DNA of 63,990 nt, the filler included, from Basidioascus undulatus (Eukaryota), in the NCBI GenBank assembly GCA_000826855.1. It is 5 parts of 5 records of this genome, joined end to end, with 100 filler letters (N's around TTAATTAATTAA, not from the genome) between each part and the next. Parts side by side here need not be neighbours in the genome. Positions count along the whole stretch, not along the records: positions 17,499 to 46,665 come from JTLS01000136.1; 4 more parts are not named here. One strand, written 5' to 3'. The notes under the pieces were generated by a model. That model saw only the letters and a list, made by a program, of their open reading frames with translations. It searched no databases and was not told where the DNA came from. The position numbers and the translations under genes were made by a program. Positions 17,399-55,501 of this stretch are shown piece after piece. How positions within the stretch are numbered: position 1 is the first letter of the stretch; every line of letters begins with the position of its first letter.

Positions 17399-17498
17399 NN
17401 NNNNNNNNNNNNNNNNNNNNNNNNNNNNNNNNNNNNNNNNNNTTAATTAATTAANNNNNNNNNNNNNNNNNNNNNNNNNNNNNNNNNNNNNNNNNNNN
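17399..17498. other. Artificial contig spacer
   Basis: N44-TTAATTAATTAA-N44. Confidence 0.98.
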
Positions 17499-20115: not shown

Positions 20116-21075
20116 CGTTGTAGCCGGTTTTCGCTTCGATAGCTTCCGGGGGTCAGTGGCGATCGTGAAACTGAGGGGTATCGTGAGGTCGTAAACGGAT
20201 GGAATGGAGAAAGTAAGAGGTGCAGAAGCTGGACAATGGGAGAACAACAGACGCTCCCTTTCAATATCTCAACGTCGGGCTCCACAGCGGCGAGAGGGCG
20301 GGCCGTCGAAGGGGCAGTGTGTCGGCGCCTTCTGCCGCTCTTCTCTGTGGCGCAGTGATGATTTTAAGCCCGGAACACGCATGAATTTGGGAGTCAATGG
20401 GGGCAAACCAAGGCAAATGGGGCTGAGGAGCTGAAATCGGACTGCCAAATAGTGTGGCGCGTCCGGCTCACGGGTACCGGCAAACACCATGATGGCCGAG
20501 CGGGCTGTGGGTGCGTTGTGATAAAGTTTGAGTAACTTGTCTGTAAAGCGTAGAGATGTCGCTTCAGGTGTAGCGAAGTCAGAAGTTGGTCGAGGCACAG
20601 CCGCTGCTGGGAAAGAGAAATTGCAAACCGACTTCTTGAGTGCATGCTTGCTAATTCAGCTTTCCCTGTAATGCCAAAATACAACGATACGCGAATCAAG
20701 CCAAGGTGCGCTTTGGCGTACAACACCAACATCGGCTGGCGGCTAGAAACACCAGCTGGCGGGCACAATTGAGTGCGACTCCAGCAGCACATATCGACAA
20801 GCCCCAGTACGAGGGTGGGCGAGTAGGCTTGAGTGAACTCTTCCGATCCCCCAGCTGCATCTTGAGCACAAGACGCACACACCAGCCAGTTGGTCATCAA
20901 CACCGTCCATCATCCATCTCATCCCGCACCGCACACGCCACGCTCGCGTAGCCGAAGCATGTGATGCAGGCGTGTTCATACAAGAGGCATACTCGTGTGC
21001 AGTACGGAGAAAGAGAGAACAGGACAGGTGCAAGGAAACATCCCCCAACGCGTGACGAACGAGACGGCGAGACGC

Positions 21076-21912
21076 TCAGAAGACGAGCGCGGCGCCCTTC
21101 TGCTTCTTCTCGCCACCGAGCTCGAAGCTGTTCGCGGGGTGCAAGCGAGGCGTGAGCAGGTTGATCGGAGCAGAGAGGAGGGGAGGATGAGGGAAGAGGG
21201 CAGGAGAGACGTACTGCTTGCAGCGCTTGAGCGCGAGCTGCATCTTGTACTTGCAGACGGTGCACTCGAGGCGGAGGACGACCTTCTTGGTCGTCTTGGC
21301 CTATTTACCGCGACACACCCAACCGTAATTCTCCATCAGTCACGCGCTCGCAACACCTGGTCGCTACGAGAAGGCACTGGGGGTGGAGAGAGAAGGAAGA
21401 CGCACCTTCTTGTGAAACACGGGCTTGGTCTGACCACCGTAACCGGACTGCTTCCGGTCGTAGCGGCGCTTACCCTGCGCGTAGAGCGAGGCCTTGCCCG
21501 TCTTGTACTGGGTAACCTTGTGCGGGCTGGAGGGCGGGGTCGAGATGGACGGGGAAGAAGGGGGCGGCAAGTGGGCGATTTTGGGTGATGCGGGAAGGCG
21601 GTTGTGGATCGACGGCGCGGTGGACGGGAGGATAAGGAGTCGGGGGCATCCGTCAGTATCGCCTAGTTCTGGTTCCCTGTAGAAGGAGAGAGTGAAAGAG
21701 GCACGACGCACGTGTGCTTGCGGCACTGCTTGCCCTTGCAGACTGATCCCAGATGCCCATCTCAGCGACCCAGCTCCCCATCATCCCCCGAGGCGCGCCG
21801 AGTTCGACACTCACAGGTACGGCGGGTCCTATAGGGGCGGACGCGATGTCAGCTTTGCACAGACGGGAGAGCAGGGGAAGGTGGGGCGAACGCACTTGGG
21901 GACGTTGACCAT
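21076..21912 (-). CDS. RPL42: 60S ribosomal protein eL42 (L44/L36a), 6 coding exons
   Basis: Spliced: [106 protein letters not shown]. Pro in QTKPVF is the cycloheximide-sensitive form. Confidence 0.98.
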
Positions 21913-21913
21913 T

Positions 21914-22220
21914 CTGCGGGGACAGCACCAACCCACACGTCAGCACCGCTATCACCATGGCTGATCCCGCACATCGTCCCCATAAAAAGTCACTCACCTG
22001 CACACCCCAAAGCAGAGCGAGTCCCAACGAATCCCCAAGCTCACCGTCAGCGCCGCCTTCGTCTTCCCACCTTCCCAACCCAACCCGCTCTTCCCCTCAC
22101 CCGCCTCCCCCGCCTCCCTCAAAGGAACGATACGCACTTGACCTATACGCAGAGAAACCACCGAGTCAGGACGTCCGAGTGAAATAAAACGGCGGTAGTG
22201 CGGGGACGGCGAGCACGCAC
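21914..22220 (-). other. RPL42 5' UTR intron cluster: intron 22220-22143, 5-nt exon 22142-22138, abutting introns 22137-21998 and 21997-21914
   Basis: Three consensus donors (GTGCGT, GTGCGT, GTGAGT), three CTGAC branch points and three YAG acceptors. The spliced product gives GTCAA-A-ATG. Confidence 0.65.
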
Positions 22221-24443
22221 CTGCTCTTGAACGGGTTGGACGGACAGACGGCGAGAGCGAAGGGGTGTGCAGGAGACGCAAAACTGGCCTCTCCGGCCGC
22301 GCGCGCGGGGGGCCGGACAGGCGAGGGGGTTTCCGCGGATTGTCGTTGGTCCTTCGGCAGTCGTTTTTTGTTTTCGCTTTCGTCTTCGCTTGCTTGTTGG
22401 GGAGGTACAGATGCATTGGAGAGCAAATAAATTCACTGGGGGATAAGTTCTTCATGTAAGCAGGGTCTTTGGGGAGAAAGGAACAGTGTGAGATACAGAC
22501 TCGAGTCATCGCGTGCAATGACCTGGTGTGTCTTTCGGTCCGCCTAGCTTTCGCTTCTGAAGCGACTCCGGCAAAGTGATGTTTGCAGGCATTCACACAG
22601 GCGCTTGCGTAGCAATTTCTCTCTTTGGTGCGATGTCTGCGAAAGGCCGAGCCGACAGGTAGCATTCAGGATTCATGGCCGGGGCCGACTGTTTGTGAAG
22701 TTTCTGGATGATTGAGCAGTTATGGCTAGTGAGCAAGACGGGTGAGGGAATCTGAATAATCCAAAGATCTTTATGAGCACTCTAGGGGTGTATTTGGAGG
22801 TACGGGGGCGGAATATTTTACCCGGTAGAGGCCAGGGCAGTCAATTTGCTCAACTCACTGAAGATCGTACTGATTTGTTGCTGTTGAACACCATTCCATT
22901 GGATTATTGGGGTGTATCCTGGGTAAATCTGCTGGACGGATATGCACAATGTGTGTATGTTGGAGAGTCTAAGTCTTACACCTCTCTCTAACTGCGGCAG
23001 CGCGTTCTTTTGAAGCTCCTGCGGGGAGGCATTGATTGGCCTTTCACTGAGGACTGACGAAGACCATTGCCACGCCGGTACATCAAAATTGGTGAGTTTC
23101 TGGGGAGCTTTTCCTGGGCGGTTGGCTTCGAGACGCTATGCTGCTGCTATCGAGCAGACAAGCTTGCAGGGAAAGCTGTTCGGTCGCCTCGTATAACGTA
23201 CAGAACTGCCGGCGCTTTTGGATTTGCAAAAGGTCGTGGGTTGACGGTGTACTTTTAACGGTCTAACGCAAAGGAGGCAAGAGGCCCTTCGCATGTTGAA
23301 GCCAACCTGAAGTACTCGCTCGAAAGTGCCTTGCGGCCAAGTGCCTCAACGTTTCGCTTCAAGTTCTGCCTTCAGTCTCCTGCAAGCGTCTAGTTGTGGA
23401 TTCTGGTAAACTTTTTAAAATGGTTCAAACACCCTTCGTCAACTCGTTCAGAACATAATGCAGCCAGAGAGCCCTTTACAGCGACGGTCTACGGCTGTCC
23501 GCCTCGCTCGTTTCCTTCGTGGTACTGGTAGAGGATCAGGAAGTTCGGGAGCATACTCCTGTGGCTGGATGGACATTGTGTTCCCGTACACTGGGAGCGT
23601 TATTGGAATTTTGGCGTTGTGATGGGCGTTGTTGCACATAACCAGAGCTAAGCCAAGTTGTCGATAGGCCGGCGATCACCGCTGGACTCCTCAGCACACT
23701 GAGAACAACGGCTGTGCTAGCATTTACATGATCGTTGTGCTTGCGGTCATGGTTTCTCCCAACGACCAAGCAAACCGCAACGGGGGGAGAAAGCTTGTCG
23801 GACTCTTCACTGAGCCATCTGCGTGCGTGGTGTCTCTGCCTTCTGATTGTTCCTTCATCCGCAAGGGACACCTGACTGTGTGTTTATCGTACTTTTCGAT
23901 GACGGCGTACAGACAAAAAAATAAACAAATCCTATGTTGTTTGGCCAGGGAAAGCTCAATGGCGAGTTCCTAGCAGAGTTGTTATTCGGCTTGAATTGGT
24001 CGCTACGATCGCGAGTGACGCGGGCCGAGCGGGGGCAAGGGCGGGGCGGCACGTTCACCGTCCACCGTCCGTCGACCGTGTCCGTGTCCGGCTGGCTGCC
24101 TATCCTCCGGGCTCCTCCCTTGCTCTTGACCGCAGCCGTCGCGCGGTCTCCCGTACGACACACGCTCTACCTCCTGCAGGTTCATAGTCTTTGGTGAGTG
24201 TACTTGGAGGTTGGGAGGCGTAGATTGGGAGGGAGAGGTGCCGGAGGGGGGACGCGCCGGGACGCGTTGGGTGAGCTGGCTGACTGGCTGGGGGGCTGGC
24301 GGGTGAGGTCACTGGGGATGGATGGGGAGCGTACACAACGAGATGGAAAATCGAGCAATACACTCAACAGCAGCATCATCCCATAGCCCCGAAAGCATGC
24401 TGACAGTCACCCACGCCTCCCCGGTCCAGCAGCAGCAGCAGCG

Positions 24444-26651
24444 ATGACCTCGCCCACCTCGCCCGGCTTCGTGAGCGACAAGCCGCTCCCGCCCGTCGGG
24501 TCGGACTCGTCCCCGCAGTCGCTCAAGCCCGGGAATCCCGTGCTCAAGGCAATGCAGAAGCCCGCTCTCAAGCGCCCTCCGAGCCTGAACGAGCTCGTTG
24601 CGAGGTGAGTGCACGACGCAATGGGGGATGGGCCGGGTCCGGCCCTTACTGACATCCGCTCCGCCCTCCCGCTTCTCGCCCACATCGACAAGGATCAACC
24701 CCGACAAGTGGTCCCAGCTCCAGGCGGAGGCCGCCCGCGGCGGGTCGACCCTCCTTGGCCACGGGCCCACCAGCCCGCAGCCGTCCATCGAGGAAGGTGG
24801 GTCGCCCGTCCTTCCTCTCATTCCGTCACCCTTCAACCCCCACACATCTCCTAACGCCCTCCAATAGCGGTCATTCTATCTTTCTCCCACCGGTACTGAC
24901 TGATATCTCTGGACGCTCTCAGAGAACGCCGCCGCTGCCGCCTCCGGCACTCCGAACTCGCGCCTCCGTCTGCCCGGGAAGCTCCTGAGCCGGACGAACT
25001 CCTCGACGACCCCTTCTCCGCCCGCGTCCGAGGGTTCCGAGGCGCTCGCCGCGCCCGCGCCCGCGTCGGAGGGTTACGTCAAGGGGTACAAGGCCGTGCC
25101 CTCGCTAGCTGCGCTGCAGGCGCGGTACAACCACCCTACCGGCGCGCCGGCGAAGGGCGCGGAGGGCGCGGAAGGGATGCCGACGTTGGAGGCGGCTGCT
25201 GCTGCGGGGGCGAAGGACGCGCCTTCGCGGAGGGTGAGCGCGACTGAGGACGAGGCCGAGGGCGCCGGTGCGGGGAAAGGGGAACATCCGCTGCAGCATG
25301 TCTGGTTCGTCGTCCTCTTTTTCTCCCTCATCTCCGTCTCTCCCCTTGCACTTTAACACCGAAACCATGTCCTCGAACAGGACGCTCTTCTACGACTCCA
25401 AGTCGTCCAAGCCGCCGCAGACGCCGCTCACTGCCGGGGCCGCGTCGCCGAGCGTCCCGCCCACGCCGACTGCCGGGCCGATGCCGACGGACAAGGGCAC
25501 GTACGAAGCGGGCTTGAGCGTCGTCGGCGAGTTCCGGACCGTCGAGAGCTTCTGTAGGACTTACAACTGGTGCAAGCCGCCTTCGAAGGTGAGTCCCTCG
25601 CGCTCTGGCCTTGCCTTCCCTTTCACCACTCTTCGTTCTTTTCTTTTTGCCCTTTTTCTTCTCTCCTTTATCCTTTATCCTTTCTCTCTTCTTTCTCAGT
25701 TCTTTCTTCTTCCGCCTTTCTTTGGTCAGCGTACTGACTGGTGCACTGTTGGACAATGCAGCTGGAGCGCAACTCGAACTACCACCTTTTCAAGGACGGC
25801 GTGAAGCCGATGTGGGAGGACAGCGCGAACGCCGCGGGCGGCAAGTGGGTCATCCAGATGCGCGGGAACCCTGCGCTCCTCGACCGCTCGTGGACGTGGC
25901 TCGTCATGGGCCTCGTAGGGGAGGAGCTCGACGAGAAGGACGAGGTCACGGGCGCTGGTGGGTCCCTTTCCTGTTTCCTCTTCCCTCTCTGCATCATTAC
26001 CGCAAATCCAGCTTTCGCACTGTCCTCTGCGGCCGGTTGCTGATGGGTGGGACGGCGTTGGGGATGAACAGTTGTTTCGACCCGTCCGAGAGGCGACCGG
26101 CTGCAGCTGTGGACGAGGGGTACGGAGCCCGAGGCGATCAATGGCATTGGGAAGCGCCTGATCAAGCTCCTCGAGGTCGAGCATGAGCCGGGGGTCAGCT
26201 TGGAGTTCCAAGTGCGTTCCCAGCTCCCCTCTTGCAACTGACTGATACGTCGATACGTCCGTGCACCCTGTTGCTCACACGCCGTGCTCCCCGGCAGTGG
26301 AACACCGGCCAAGCGCCCGCGCCGAACAAGTACATCTCCATCGCACCCACGCCGGCGCACCACCAGCCCGGCCCCTCCCTGGGCGGGGGGTCCGCGCCCA
26401 ACTCACTCCTCTCCTCGCGCTCGTCCACGCCATCAGGTGTCGCGGGCGGGGCGGACTCCCCCATGGGCGCGTTCGGCGGCTCGGGCAGCAGCTGGCGCAG
26501 CGCGGGCCCGGCGGCGCGCGGGGGGATGGGCATGGGCGGCGCGATGGGGGGCGCGATCGGGCTGGGGATCTCGGGCGGCGGGGGAGGGCAGCCGAGGAGT
26601 GGGCTCCCGCCGCAGCAGCAGCCGATGGGCGGGTTCGGGCTCGGGAAGTGA
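24444..26651 (+). CDS. eIF4E-family cap-binding protein with long N-terminal and Gly-rich C-terminal extensions
   Basis: HPLQHVW/TLFYD...EFRTVESFCRTYN...YHLFKDGVKPMWEDSANAAGGKW...LDRSWTWLVMGLVGE...VTGA/VVSTRPRGDRLQLWT. Canonical introns keep the frame. Confidence 0.93.
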
Positions 26652-28691: not shown

Positions 28692-31600
28692 ATGAGATAC
28701 GTCAAACCAGCATGGGTGGTCCACATGTGTGCGTTCCATCATTTATCGGACACGCAGCGGAGCTGATCCCGTCTACATCGCAGCGGGTGAGGGGGACCGT
28801 AAGAAGCGGACGGGCATCTTCTCCATTCACGTCCACCCGGACGGCTCTCGTCTAGCAACTGGCAGTCTGGGTGCGTGTAGTTCCTCACACTCTGGTGATT
28901 AGGGGGCGCTAGCCGGAGGAATCGTGATTGACGAGGAGACGGTCACCAGACACGACCGTCCGCATCTGGTCCACCGCGCCGATCCTGAACCCCGAGGCGG
29001 AGATGAACGAGCGCATCCCCAAGCTGCTTTGTACGCTTGACCAGCACAGCGGTGAGTGTCTTCATCTCCCTAGGCACGCGGTGTAAGCAGGGCAGTGCTG
29101 ATGAGGCGAGAGGAACGCCAGGTCCGGTTATGACGGTCCGGTGGTCGCACTCGGGTCGGTACCTCGCCTCGGGCTCGGACGACCGCGTTATCATGGTGTG
29201 GGCGATAGACCCGTGCGTTCTAAATCTCTATGGGGGGTAAGACTGCATGGCGCTAAGCGGTCCGGAACATGCAGGATGGGAGGCGGGAAGCGCTGGGGCA
29301 CGGACGAGGTCAACGTGGAGAACTGGACGTGCGAGAAGCTGCTGCGGGGACATGACAGCGGCGCGTGTTTCTTCTGTGGTCTCTTGGTCTCGTGTAGGCA
29401 ATGCTAAGACTTGGGGGACACGCGCAGATGTGGCCGACGTGGCGTGGTCCGAAGACGACGCCTACTTGGCTTCGGTCGGGATTGACGGGACGCTCATCGT
29501 GTACGACACGCGCACGTGGGGTGCGACCATTCATATAATCTATGGCTTAACCTGTCTGACTTGTCTTTATTGATACAGAGCGCGTCGTCAAGCTCTCCGG
29601 ACATGACAGCTCAATCAAGGGCGTCTGCTGGGATCCCGCTGGCCAATATCTCGCGACGGCGGTACGTGTCCTGCCTCGGTACACCAACTTTCTTACTCAC
29701 ACTATGAGCTTCTGTTATCTAGTCGGACGACCGGACCCTCAAAGTCTGGCGGACTGAAGACTGGGGACTGGAAGCGAGCATCACCGACCCGTTCGTGAAC
29801 TCGCCGCGCGCGTTCGTACGCCGGCTGAGGTGAGTCGGCCACTTGCTCTGGATCCTGTTCATAGACGCGCGGCTGATGAATGTACCCCTGAAGCTGGTCC
29901 CCTGACGGCGCGCACATCACCGCCGCGTGCGCCATGAACGGCCCTGTCTTCGTCGCCGCCGTCATCCGCCGCAGCGACTGGACGTCCCAGGTCTCCCTCG
30001 TCGGTCACGAGAACACCGTGCTCGTTTCGGTGCGTCTCATTGCCTTGTTCGCGTGCGCGAAGTGATTCCTCAACTGACAGCGCAAAGCGATCGCCAGAGG
30101 TTCAACCCGCGCGTGTTCCACAAGGACGTCGATCAGCCGGCGCAGAAGGGCAACGTGTTCAGCGTCGTCGCTGTCGGGTCTGAGGATAGCACCATCTCCG
30201 TGTTCTTGACGAAGCAGGCGCGCCCAATCCTCGTCGCCAAAGACATCTTCGACCGCCAGGTCCTCGATCTCAGCTGGTTAGTGCCTCCTCCCCCTCTTTT
30301 CATTCGACCACTCCGTCGGGCAGTATTCAGCAGGTGTGGGCCCTGACCACCTCATGTTCTGTTTTGACAGGTCGAGCGACGGCCTCACGCTGTACGCATG
30401 CTCCTCGGACGGGACCATCGCCGTCTTCTCGTTCGAGGCGTCCGAGCTCGGGCCGTTCGCGCCGCCGGGCGTACGCGAGCAGTATCTGGCCGCGTATCCC
30501 TCGCGCGCTCGGAAACGCGCGCAGCTCGCTCCCGCTGCCACCCTCGTCCCTCCGCAACCTCAGCCCACGCAGATGCCGTTCCAGCCGGCGCCGCAACATC
30601 CCCATGTACCTCCCCCTCAGACCCTTCTCCAACACCCCGCTCCCGCACCTACTCCCCCACCGCCGACCGCGCAGACGGTCACGATCGGCAGGAACGGCAA
30701 GAAGCGCATCACGCCGTCCCTGATCGGCGGGATTGCCCAGCGCGCTCCGTCGACCGCCCCTGTCCCTGCGCCCTTCGGCCAGCCTCAGCCCACCCCTGCC
30801 CCTGTCGCGCCAGCACCGTTCGGCCAGCCGTATGCTCAGCCATACGCTCAACCATACGCCCAGCCTTTCGCAGGCGCGCCCGAGGTCTCGCGCCAAGCCG
30901 CGACGGCCGACCTCCGCGCCGGCGCGGACGCGCTCAACAACGGCGGCGCTGCCGCGCTCCCGCCGTTTGCCAGCCCGAGTGCGAGTGCGGGGCACTGGAC
31001 CGCCCCGACGTGGGGCGGCATCAACGAGCCGCCGCCCGCGCCCGCGCCCCGCGCCAGTCTGGACGAGGCGATGGATGTCGACCCGACCGAGCTGCGCGTC
31101 GGGCCCCCGTCGGCGAGCCGGGTCGTCAAGGGCCGCACCCTAGGCGGAGACCGCCAGAGGGACGTCGTGGCGCCCCGCGAACTCCGGCAGTACCTCCCGC
31201 CCCTCGCCACGCCGGGAGCGCAACCCGGCCCGATGCTGCCCATACCCCCGCTCAACGCGTTCCTTAGCGTCGACACGCCGCAAGGCGATGTGATCGAGGT
31301 TCGGAACGTGCCAGAGTCGAGTGCGTGCCCCTTCCTCGCTGTCCGTTTTTTTGGTCTGCCACGGTCGATGATGGATCCGTGAGCACCTGCAGGGGTGTAC
31401 GAGATTTCGCTGCAAGGCCCCCGCAACACTGTCGGCGCGCGGAAGACGCTCTGGCTCGACTACCTGCCTTCCGCGATCCTTGCGGCGGCGGGCACCGCTC
31501 AACTGACCGCAGCCGCTTGCGAAGACGGCAAGCTCCATGTCTATTCGCCTACTGGACGGAGGTGAATTGCTTTAGATTATTGCGCGAAGGCTGCGACTGC

Positions 31601-37103: not shown

Positions 37104-38244
37104 TTACGCAAAATCCCACTGCTCCTCACGCGCCTTCGGTCCCGTATTGGTTCCTGCACCTTTGAGCCCCGCAGCGCCGAGGGCCTTCCCTCCCCTTCCC
37201 ACCTCCTCCCATATCACTCTGCCAGCGTCATACAGCCACTCGACCTGCCCATTCCCTTCCACCATAAGGCCCCTCCGCTCCCGTAGCCCATCCACCGCCC
37301 TCACAATCAGGTCCTCCTTCCACTCCTGAGGCAGCCTCGTCAACCCGCGCGCGTCTGGCATGGTAGGGCATACGACCGCCCCGCGCGCCATGAGGGGGAG
37401 GACGCGCGCGAGATGGGCGAGGACGATGAACGTCCCGGTGCGGCCGATGCCGGCGGAGCAGTGCACGAGGACCGGGGCCGAGCTGGGAGGCAGCAAGGAG
37501 AGGAGGTGCAGAAGCGGAAGCGGAGAGGGCGGCAGGGAGTGGTCCGGCCAGAGCGGATAGAAGTGATGCGTGACCGTCTTCGAGGCGTGGGAAGCGGAGG
37601 GGGTCGTCGGGGTGAGAAGGAGGACAGTGGAGACGATGCCGAGCGGTGAAGTGGTGCTGGACTGGTGGGTGACCGTGAGGGATGGAAGGCGCAGGGGAGC
37701 GGTGGGCGTGGGGAGGTAGGGATCGGCTTTGATGCGGTCGCGCTCGGTCCACTATGTCCCAGCGAAGCGGGTGGGGGATCACTACAAAGACAGGGGTGGG
37801 GGAGAGGAGAGATAGACGCACCCGCGTCAGCTGCACAATACTTGGAATTTCCTCCTCATACAGCAGTGTGTAAAACGCATCGAAGCTCTGGGGCAATGGC
37901 GCCTGCGCAGCAACCCACCGCCTCTCCGCCTGCCCGTCCCTCTCACCCTCCAGCACCTCCGGCACCCTCACCCAATTCGCGTTCAAGTAGCCCTGCCCTC
38001 TGCCCATACCCGCATGGCTGCGTGGTGTTGCGAGCGAATGATCCCACGGAATGATGTCCGCATAGCGATTCGCGGACCGGTGAGCGAGCGCCTGGCGCCA
38101 GCTGAAGGCGTTTGTGGTCGCGGGAGAAGAGAAGCGCGCCCGGTCGCGCGCGGTGAGCTCCGCGACCGCCCGACGTAGGTAGGTCGGTGACTGAAGAGAG
38201 GCGAGGAGGAAAGATGGGAGAGGAGGTGCGGCGTTGGCGGACAT
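37104..38244 (-). CDS. Classical protein tyrosine phosphatase (one intron)
   Basis: NRYADIIPWD, YLNANWV, WVAAQAPLP, WPDH and the P-loop VHCSAGIGRTGTFI, followed by LRERR..MV. Confidence 0.93.
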
Positions 38245-38748
38245 GCTGGTTGGGGTTGGGTTTGGAGGCTTGGGGCCAGCGGAGGAAGATCGGGTGTCAT
38301 GGGCGCAGGTCAAAAAAGGAGCAGGGTGAGCTCTGCAGACAGTAATCTTTGGAAAGGGATGACATACATCTTAACTTGATGGACGCTGCAGGAGCTTCCG
38401 GATCAAATTTGGCATCGGTGCGAGGAGAAGATGGTAGAGGTTGGACGGAAAGATACCACTGCTCCACGTCAGGAGCGCGGTCAGGAGCACTGCACTGCCA
38501 CCGTGCGGCTTTTGACTGCAGCCCTGCTGCTGGCTCCTTGCTCCCACCTTTATCACGCTATTTGTATCGACGTGGAGCGTAAAATCCACAATACACGTTA
38601 CATTGCGCCGTATTTCTCGAGTACGTCGACCGCGACCTGGAGCTTTCGCAGTGCAGCATGCTCATGCTCAAATTCTGCGCTGCTCACACATTCAAGTTCC
38701 ATCCCAATACCCCTTAACGCACCATAACAACATCACGTCCTTTCAATC

Positions 38749-43288: not shown

Positions 43289-45612
43289 CGGAGGCTGGCC
43301 CGCGCACAGCGTCCGGGCTCGGACGGAACGCTGGCCGACACGGCATTCAGTTGCGAAGTGTCACGGCCAGGCGTGGATCCCATTCAGTGTCGGCCGGTTG
43401 ATGAAGAAAGTCTTGCTCAACGAAAACGACAAATAGTTTTGCTTGTCTGCGCAGCCTTCCTCCTTCGTACGATCCGGGCTGGAAAACTGCACAACGCCTG
43501 CATTGCAACGACTCACAGAAGCACTCCGGCCCCGCTTTCTGCCCATGAGAAGCTTATCCAAATTGAAAAAAGGAATGAAACCCCACGGTAAGCGGGTGTT
43601 CGAAAAACGGAAATGTGACTACAGAAAGCAGTGCCGCCTGCCAGTCTTCTGCCACCCGGGAGGATGGAGTCCGGATACATGCACTCAACATACAACTGCT
43701 TCCCGTGGTACACTGCAGCCAGCCTGCGACTCACTTGGATGGATTACCAGCCAGTATGACCATCGCCCAGTTCGATCCCACCGTTGCATCTACTTTTGTC
43801 CGATCTCGAAAGTTCAAAGCCCCAACGTCGCACCGTCTGCCTCCCGTCGACGCCTTGCCTGTGCGGCAGAGCCTCGTTGGTCTTCGATCACGCCAAGCTA
43901 ACGCCGTATGCGAGCCGCATGAGGATACGTGAATTCCGTTGTGTTTCCTGCCGTACTGGGCGGCTGTCGAAGGGTTGGATCGAATAGGCGGGGTACTTAT
44001 GTGATGTGCCGCTTCCACGCAAAGCACAACGCACGCATTCAACTTCCAACCTCGATTGTTTTGCACCACCAACAAACACACGAGCAACACACACACTCCG
44101 CAAAGTTTCAATGGGGTAAAAATTGGATGAATTCACCGCCCCACCACCGACCCCACATCGTGAATCTACAACCCCAGCAACACACAGTCAGCCAGCCGCC
44201 CTTGGTCCATGAACCACAGCCGTGCGCGCAGCGTAGTCAGAAGCCGTTTTTATTCTCTCGCAACCGGTCCAAGCCCGTCAACACGACCGCCCATGGCGCG
44301 CAAGACGCGCGCCGGGGGCCGCGCGGGCGGGCGGCGTGCGGCGCGTCGTCGAATGGATAATCAACTGAGGGTGTCGTCCTTTGGCGCCTTGCGGGCTGGT
44401 GTCCAGATCGAATAGCGACTCACGAAGTGGAGGGGTGGTTGCGGAAAGGGGATGTGGGACTGTGAAGAGACTTTCGGACGGGCGAAAGTCAGTACGGTGG
44501 ATTGGGCAAGGTGGGATGGGGTTGGAGAGAGGGAGATGGAGAGCGCAGGAGGCATTCAGCGATGCGCACTGCATCGAATGTTGGGTTTTCCCCACGGGCG
44601 GTAAAACACCTGCCAGGCGGAAGAACGAAGGTATGAAGATGGGTCTTCATCTGCCTCGAGCGCGGGCGCGCATGTCCTTCTCCCTTCTCCCTCCTGCACC
44701 CAAAAAAAGTCTAACTCACAAAGTGCTGTGGGTCGCGCGGAAGATTGTATGCGTCTGTGTGGAAGGGGAGGCTTTGTAGCCGAGCGGCATGTCAGCTACT
44801 GTTCGCCAGACAAAATGAGCGTGCGTGTGCGTGAAGGGTTCAGATATGGTTTGGTAAGGTATATGGTTATCTTCAACGGGTAGTGCAGAAGCAGAACTGA
44901 ATATAGTGAATCATCCTTGAAAGGCGCGGCGGCGCATTCTCCCCTCTTACCAACGCAGAGCAAAAGCAGAACATGGACTCACGATCAGCAGGTAGGGGGG
45001 GCGTTCGAAGTCGGTCTTGGAACGCCAGAGATCTGCCCGGACCACCTTCGATGCAGGGTCAGTATGAATGCTTGACAGAGCGGGAGAACAGCCATCGTCG
45101 AGCGGAGGAGACGAGCGTCCGTTGGTGGTGCATAGGTGTGTAAGGCTCACGGAGTCGCCCACGGATTAGCAGCCCGAAAGGGAGGGCGTTTCTTCATCGC
45201 TCGTGGAAGGTGGCCGCCGACAATGGCTTCTGGCTTCTACCATACAAATCAAGAAAGCTCACCTGTTAGTGTGTTGATTGAGGAAGAGGGGAGATGGAGA
45301 AGTGAGGGTGTGAGGAGAGGCAAGAAAGAAGACGTTGAAATAAATACCTTTTGAGCGCGAGGCAAGCCGGCCCTGAAGGGGATTTCGCGAAAGGCCCCGC
45401 GGGTGGCACGCGGAGGGGGGCCGGACGGCGCTCGGTGAGGTGGCCGTCGCGCCTGCCCGCGCGCGCCTTTGGACGCTCGACTCGCATTACTCTGTTCACA
45501 GCCCAAAGTTCGTAGTCCGCGGCCTTTCATTGCAATCATCAACGCCGCCATCTCAGCGCACCACCGAAGGCGACTGACGCGCCCCCGCCCACGCTCTGCT
45601 CCCGCGCCCGCC

Positions 45613-46665: not shown

Positions 46666-46765
46666 NNNNNNNNNNNNNNNNNNNNNNNNNNNNNNNNNNN
46701 NNNNNNNNNTTAATTAATTAANNNNNNNNNNNNNNNNNNNNNNNNNNNNNNNNNNNNNNNNNNNN
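46666..46765. other. Artificial contig spacer
   Basis: N44-TTAATTAATTAA-N44. Confidence 0.98.
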
Positions 46766-55401: not shown

Positions 55402-55501
55402 NNNNNNNNNNNNNNNNNNNNNNNNNNNNNNNNNNNNNNNNNNNNTTAATTAATTAANNNNNNNNNNNNNNNNNNNNNNNNNNNNNNNNNNNNNNNNNNN
55501 N
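55402..55501. other. Artificial contig spacer
   Basis: N44-TTAATTAATTAA-N44. Confidence 0.98.

Follow-up and report, generated by a model that had tools for sequence, protein, structure and literature searches.

Does the leader of a ribosomal protein gene in a short-intron fungus lose a 224-nucleotide (nt) stretch in a single splicing step, or does that stretch consist of two complete introns which meet at an exon of zero length? The question is raised by the 5' end of the eL42 gene (RPL42/L44e/L36a) of the fungus Basidioascus undulatus, located on the minus strand of the window, the 63,990-nt stretch of DNA from assembly GCA_000826855.1 that was analysed at its full length, filler included. 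The gene has its ATG at 21912, six exons and five coding introns; all features of the locus given below lie on the minus strand. Upstream of the ATG there are three consensus GT..CTGAC..YAG units of 78, 140 and 84 nt; five nucleotides, GTCAA, stand between the first two, and the last two adjoin at an AG/GT junction (a slash marks a splice border here and below). The favoured interpretation, to which a probability of about one half is assigned, is that this leader is composed of three complete short introns placed end to end (78 nt, GTCAA, 140 nt, 84 nt, A-ATG), and that the AG/GT junction would be used as a zero-length exon. Two parts of this arrangement are held more firmly: at least the last leader intron is very probably real, and the 5-nt microexon is also considered probable. 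The sequence signals, their rarity in shuffled sequence, the identity of the gene and the microexon layout in two other fungi are observed; transcription from a start upstream of 22220, splicing of the units and use of the AG/GT junction are what we infer.

The putative first exon (22221-22300; its 5' end is placed by inference, 22300 being a working limit only) is a pyrimidine-rich stretch without ATG that ends in GAGCAG ahead of the first consensus donor. Leader intron 1 (22143-22220) runs from this donor, GAGCAG/GTGCGT at 22220, through a CTGAC with its branch-point adenine at 22166, to TATAG ending at 22143; its branch-to-AG distance of 23 nt and its length of 78 nt are both typical for the window. 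The microexon GTCAA occupies 22138-22142, between the 78-nt and 140-nt units, and would fill positions -6 to -2 of GTCAAAATGG, the start context in which the fully spliced leader ends. Unit 2 (21998-22137) features a GTGCGT donor at 22137, a G-rich tract, a CTGAC with its branch adenine at 22047, a pyrimidine run and TGCAG ending at 21998; the branch adenine lies 49 nt from the AG. Unit 3 (21914-21997) begins with GTGAGT at 21997, contains a CTGAC with its branch adenine at 21940, 26 nt from the AG, and closes with CGCAG ending at 21914; A-ATG-GTC follows, and the chain of units stops exactly one base ahead of the ATG.

The common border of units 2 and 3 is CAG/GTGAGT (21997-21998), where the acceptor CTCGCTCTGCTTTGGGGTGTGCAG abuts GTGAGT at 21998/21997 within a span, 22137-21914, bounded by an outer donor and an outer acceptor. 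The 140 and 84 nt add up to this 224-nt span, which keeps its own donor (22137), branch point (21940) and acceptor (21914) intact. A preliminary description of the locus had proposed an acceptor at 21998 directly against a donor at 21997, a branch point of its own for each half, the division of a 224-nt intron into abutting units of 140 and 84 nt, and a 5-nt microexon upstream; the signals for all of these are present, with the CTGAC branch adenines at 22047 and 21940, and every coordinate and motif that it gave, from GAGCAG/GTGCGT to CGCAG/AATGGTC, is found in the sequence, exact to the base. Over the eight introns of the gene (three leader, five coding) the donor hexamers are GTGCGT five times, GTGAGT twice and GTACGT once, and the leader and coding sets are alike; a perfect CTGAC is present in all three leader units versus two of the five coding introns.

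How readily such a chain arises by chance was assessed with a loose pattern for an intron-like unit: GT[AG][ACG]GT, then CT[AG]A[CT], then the first AG 8-60 nt on, with a total length of 45-260 nt. The window contains 112 such units, split 57 to 55 between the plus and minus strands, and pairs of units with a gap of 0 or at most 5 nt occur solely at the eL42 leader. In 200 dinucleotide-preserving block shuffles of the strand there were on average 38.5 units (standard deviation 7.9) against the 55 observed, an enrichment of about 1.4-fold; per 64 kilobases (kb), the same shuffles averaged 0.015 abutting sites, and 0.09 when gaps of up to 5 nt were allowed. When only the 388 nt upstream of the ATG were shuffled, 3,789 of 20,000 shuffles contained at least one unit and 27 contained a unit ending just before A-ATG; a pair with a gap of at most 5 nt appeared in nine, and an abutting pair in two. 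One unit alone is weak evidence; a chain of three units in register with the ATG is not plausibly a product of chance.

Further evidence for the microexon and the introns beside it is provided by other eL42 loci. A metagenome scan with the Phenoliferia eL42 protein P0006 as query retained 79 loci, under a ranking that favours uninterrupted genes; when aligned to the window these match only coding exons and the first bases past the stop (21741-21061), the leader being unmatched. Two GC-rich fungal eL42 loci, L015 and L029, have a CTGAC and a YAG acceptor, then nine nucleotides, GACACCGAA or GACTCCAAG, that lead into a GT donor; an intron of 61 or 96 nt with a CTGAC then ends in CAG directly at the ATG. 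Both resemble the window in the succession of acceptor, tiny exon, donor and short intron ending at or next to the ATG, and L029 also shares the position of the last coding intron (CAAGCA/GTACGT). They differ from the window in that the microexon is 9 nt rather than 5 and the last leader intron is single, at 61 or 96 nt; alignment of the leader sequence with either locus gave no meaningful similarity. This layout supports the view that the predicted microexon and its flanking leader introns are real in part of the fungi. The 140-nt unit may be a lineage-specific addition at an old donor, or the 9-nt microexon of the relatives may have shrunk to nothing here.

These results bear on the suggestion that the leader introns do not exist, in which case transcription would start just upstream of the ATG and the units would be chance motif matches. 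This is considered extremely improbable; the modest excess of loose units over shuffles (55 versus 38.5 ± 7.9) and the little that a single unit proves speak for it, but the gaps of 5 and 0 nt and the end one base before the ATG of an intron-dense gene occur far below shuffle rates, and L015 and L029 carry an intron that ends at the ATG. The model of the Rhodotorula toruloides protein also has ...LTSLVVPQ directly ahead of its Met, which would fit CTGAC..CAG/ATG read through as coding sequence, as far as a protein model can be read in this manner.

It is also conceivable that there are two start sites, with some or most transcripts beginning within 22137-21998 (for example in the pyrimidine run at about 22020) and GTGAGT at 21997 serving as the donor of a short first exon. 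CAG/GTGAGT is the textbook exon/intron consensus, and on this reading the adjacency would stem from the exonic side of a 5' splice-site consensus rather than from an acceptor; the CTCGCTCTGCTTT run just upstream resembles the CTTCGCTCTCGCC run of the proposed first exon, and in L015 and L029 a single short intron directly precedes the ATG. Such starts would, however, leave unexplained the perfect donor at 22137, the CTGAC at 22047, and the 78-nt unit and microexon that stand in register upstream, and this alternative is judged quite unlikely.

If the three units are indeed introns, what remains is how the 224-nt stretch is removed, and the typical introns of the window are informative here. 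Short consensus units peak at 50-100 nt, a range that holds 17 of the 73 strong-donor units, the background being flat at about four per 25-nt bin; by this measure units of 78 and 84 nt are typical, but an intron of 224 nt would not be. Branch-to-AG distances are 15-24 nt in 11 of 21 short units, the usual range being about 15-30 nt. By intron definition, as generally understood for short-intron fungi, a 5' splice site should normally be joined to whichever functional branch point lies nearest and to the first AG beyond it that can serve as acceptor; this argues against removal of the span in a single step. For the donor at 22137 these signals would be the CTGAC at 22047 together with the CAG at 21998; the sole earlier AG stands 6-7 nt past the branch adenine.

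Removal as two introns is favoured because introns here look short (about 50-100 nt) with strong GTGCGT or GTGAGT and CTGAC signals. The 224-nt stretch would mostly leave as two separate introns, with either order possible: removal of the 140-nt unit first would re-create CAA/GTGAGT, and removal of the 84-nt unit first would leave TGCAG/AATGG as the acceptor. Both routes would yield the same messenger RNA as one-step removal, with a leader ending in GTCAAAATGG. At the 0-nt and 5-nt exons the acceptor and donor sequences overlap; neighbouring introns are probably not committed together and would leave in turn. The microexon would give C-A-A at -4 to -2, and with it AAA at -1 to -3. According to PMC7049704, strong enrichment of A at -1 to -3 is a signature of cytoplasmic ribosomal protein genes in six fungi; because the predicted AAA matches this signature, supplying it is a plausible purpose for the microexon. 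The 5' end of the gene is unusually crowded, in that the first 509 nt past the first donor (21712-22220) hold five introns and 68 nt of exon, in pieces of 5, 0, 18, 14 and 31 nt. The events proposed would amount to constitutive processing of this crowded end, rather than to a demonstrated regulatory device.

The principal alternative is that 22137-21914 is a single ordinary leader intron of 224 nt, spliced in one step through the branch point at 21940, with the internal site cryptic and rarely or never used; this is thought unlikely, and several observations are nevertheless in its favour and weigh against use of the AG/GT junction. All three signals needed to splice the span as a whole, donor, branch point and acceptor, are intact. 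The 140-nt unit departs from the norm, as its sole consensus branch point lies 49 nt from the AG, outside the usual range of the window, and none of the 21 short units has a distance of 45-54 nt. The same gene has a 185-nt coding intron without an internal AG/GT, and therefore length alone does not force subdivision; according to PMC7049704, leader introns of Cryptococcus neoformans average 118 nt versus 63 nt for coding introns. About 0.015 abutting pairs per 64-kb strand corresponds to several per genome in random sequence, the site was chosen from a very large scan, and a real long intron might simply contain the AG/GT by chance. AGGT is absent from the last leader intron of L015 and of L029, both of them distant, and conservation of the zero-length exon was not seen in these two loci. 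Finally, the 5' arm of a 15-nt inverted repeat (22262-22276) could pair, at 14 of its 15 bases, with 22008-21994, a segment that straddles the junction; if the upstream arm is transcribed, this helix could mask the AG/GT, although it provides a lead only. Against one-step removal, the internal site has full consensus on both sides together with a pyrimidine run, and its AG is the first usable one after a perfect CTGAC; comparable sites are used in Schizosaccharomyces pombe and C. neoformans, by the reports considered next.

Use of the junction as a zero-length exon would have precedents. The preliminary description had cited, as the known cases, the ratchet points of long introns in animals and the nested stwintrons of fungi; both exist, and the list is incomplete, since experimentally demonstrated zero-length exons come from S. 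pombe and C. neoformans as well. In S. pombe two cases were shown experimentally, one of them in the 336-nt intron of SPNCRNA.445 and reported to be conserved in the genus (bioRxiv 10.1101/226894). As in the eL42 leader, a 3' splice site there immediately adjoins a 5' splice site in an intron longer than is usual for a fungus; SPNCRNA.445 differs in being a non-coding small nucleolar RNA (snoRNA) host transcript for which splicing is experimentally confirmed, whereas the eL42 case is predicted from DNA only. In C. neoformans the 375-nt intron of BOT1 is removed as 210 + 165 nt, as followed by junction, branch and 3'-end profiling (bioRxiv 10.1101/224170). That organism is likewise a basidiomycete with short introns, a yeast, and the final junction is likewise the same as for one-step removal; the eL42 prediction differs in its sizes (224 = 140 + 84), in belonging to a ribosomal protein leader and in standing beside a 5-nt microexon. 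Zero-length-exon recursive splicing is thus already documented in fungi, and the eL42 leader, if real, is a further compact example.

Ratchet points of Drosophila and vertebrates share with this locus an acceptor directly against a donor and a 5' splice site that is regenerated after the first step; they divide introns of tens of kilobases, whereas here both halves are of approximately normal intron size. Fungal stwintrons are likewise complex intervening sequences composed of two U2-type introns, and in them the inner intron splits one of the outer intron's splicing signals (donor, branch point or acceptor), making the order obligatory; abutting U2 introns excised by recursive splicing are listed as a separate class (PMC6616335, for both statements). 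A stwintron was rejected for the eL42 leader: the donor at 22137, the branch point at 21940 and the acceptor at 21914 are uninterrupted, and both units are complete. In a literature search, incomplete and with supplements outside it, recursive splicing was not encountered in the leader of any ribosomal protein gene, nor in a fungal intron as short as this one.

The preliminary description had further noted that retention of the last intron would expose an upstream ATG at about 21958. This ATG is present, but it is not alone: the 84-nt unit contains three (21983, 21974 and 21958), all out of frame and with reading frames that overlap the main ATG. From the putative first exon through the 78-nt unit and the microexon to the end of the 140-nt unit there is no ATG. 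The preliminary description had suggested that stepwise splicing might regulate ribosomal protein output; in a stronger form of this idea, ordered, stepwise removal would be a regulatory device which tunes eL42 output, for example if retention of the 84-nt unit were regulated, its three upstream ATGs then preventing translation or setting off decay. The confinement of the overlapping, out-of-frame ATGs to the 84-nt unit agrees with this, and the overlap of acceptor and donor at the 0- and 5-nt exons would force an order. The 14/15 helix over the junction is one of seven of such quality within 400 nt in the window, with a chance of about 0.003 of covering a given site, and it appears in the minimum-free-energy fold.

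No support for a regulatory role was found. Depletion of ATG upstream of 21984 is not significant, since 794 of 5,000 shuffles were equally ATG-free, and any leader intron that bears an ATG behaves likewise when retained. The fold of the leader as a whole is no better than that of shuffled sequence (-171 against a mean of -164.6 kcal/mol, z = -1.03, with 17 of 100 shuffles as good), because a C-rich stretch precedes a G-rich one; the helix arm 22276-22262 may also lie upstream of the transcription start. Regulation by ordered removal is regarded as very unlikely. An extended form of the idea, a forced-order cascade, has a similarly slim chance of being correct: the three leader introns would leave one by one, the helix 22276-22262/22008-21994 would gate the middle step, and stalling would keep the 84-nt unit, the three upstream ATGs of which would silence the message. 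Were such a cascade true, it would act as a splicing-kinetics dial on a ribosomal protein; no shorter intron would be known to splice recursively, and no earlier case from the leader of a ribosomal protein gene.

Other occupants of the leader region were also considered. None of nine reading frames across it, on both strands and including a frame of 223 amino acids, has a Pfam match, and 20800-22800 is without Rfam matches at expectation values (E) of up to 1; by the latter result, no intron-hosted snoRNA or other known RNA is recognised inside the leader units. Tandem duplication or an introner-like element as the origin of the units is unsupported, there being no other copies of any unit in the window. 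The 140-nt and 84-nt units are alike only around the branch point, over 22 aligned positions (z = 2.06; 11 of 200 shuffles equal or higher). The G-rich part of the 140-nt unit contains a G-run tract of the G-quadruplex type (22066-22118), one of 13 such motifs on the strand and so commonplace here.

If the AG/GT junction serves as a splice site, recursive splicing would extend beyond exceptionally long introns, as 224 nt would be cut into normal fungal intron sizes, and a third fungal lineage would be added beside the two shown experimentally. The leader would also provide a compact test case (a cassette of about 310 nt), highly expressed and easily mutated, for how the spliceosome handles exons of 0 and 5 nt. 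If the junction is not used, the leader has an ordinary long intron with a cryptic site. The main practical value lies in annotation, since both the microexon and the leader introns will escape gene-finding programs.

The coding part of the gene is well defined. The exon with the start codon (21896-21913) consists of A plus ATGGTCAACGTCCCCAA, that is, codons 1-5 and two bases of codon 6; the remainder of the gene (21076-21895) comprises the rest of the coding sequence, with a match to the Pfam family PF00935 (Ribosomal_L44) and protein similarity. The coding exons, 21912-21896, 21828-21815, 21742-21712, 21526-21406, 21300-21215 and 21127-21076 (stop included), join to 321 nt and encode 106 amino acids; the five coding introns are 67, 72, 185, 105 and 87 nt long, from 5' to 3'. 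Exon 4 by itself matches PF00935 with 59.9 bits versus a cut-off of 25 (E = 3.2e-16), and in a database search with this exon 3,431 of 3,472 candidates were eL42 relatives. Among the 120 matches listed for the 106-residue product, a Rhodotorula araucariae model (P0117) has 96% identity over 106 residues, and the next-nearest eL42 proteins are those of R. pacifica, Microbotryum and Rhodosporidiobolus. The gene is accordingly identified as the eL42 of an intron-rich, GC-rich basidiomycete which, in this one protein and among the matches listed, is nearest to Microbotryomycetes.

Coding intron 3 (21527-21711), the 185-nt one, has its sole CTGAC with the branch adenine at 21653, 126 nt before the 3' AG; the C-rich stretch between 21664 and 21528 contains no AG and resembles an extended AG-free zone following a distal branch point.

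Public eL42 models from Rhodotorula, Microbotryum, Puccinia and Botryobasidium (P0023, P0115, P0117, P0030, P0021, P0068 and P0026) have N-terminal extensions of 40-80 residues or fusions to a transfer RNA (tRNA) (uracil-54) methyltransferase; these extensions and fusions are probable annotation errors that come from a complex 5' end and close neighbours. In a synteny check the tRNA methyltransferase that adjoins or is fused to eL42 in the Rhodotorula models was absent from the window.

The position of the intron nearest the start codon shifts by 3-4 nt between lineages. In 18 of 20 inspected eL42 loci an acceptor AG stands right before codon 2 (GTN AAC): L012, L013, L018, L044, L073, L077, L031, L059 and L014, and further L002, L003, L008, L017, L027, L032, L042, L074 and L024. 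An ATG/GT donor is visible upstream in several of the 18 (for example L044, L031, L018, L014 and L027), and in the 18 the intron comes after the ATG; its end lies just ahead of the ATG in the window and in L015 and L029. At L001, L060, L062 and L069 the context GTCAAAATGG is contiguous in the DNA, and in the window it would have to be assembled from the microexon and exon 1.

Elsewhere in the window, blocks of N are located at 8652-8751, 17399-17498, 46666-46765 and 55402-55501, each consisting of 44 N, TTAATTAATTAA and 44 N; these blocks resemble the six-frame-stop spacers with which contigs are strung together; the window would then consist of five artificially connected contigs, and adjacency across the blocks would be meaningless. 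The eL42 locus lies within the piece 17499-46665. Exons of neighbouring genes include one at 25238-25804 (plus strand) with a weak eIF4E match below the Pfam cut-off, one at 30282-31382 (plus strand) with a HIRA B motif, one at 37228-38370 (minus strand) for a protein-tyrosine phosphatase and one at 2555-3394 (minus strand) with DUF4112. Database matches of the HIRA exon have only 27-38% identity, and the named ones (27-29%) are from Agaricomycetes. A C/D box snoRNA of the snR61/Z1/Z11 type is present at 44837-44922 (minus strand, 57 bits), and a U6 small nuclear RNA gene at 8733-8831 (minus strand, 75 bits), the match of which runs into the N spacer, that is, it stands at a contig end.

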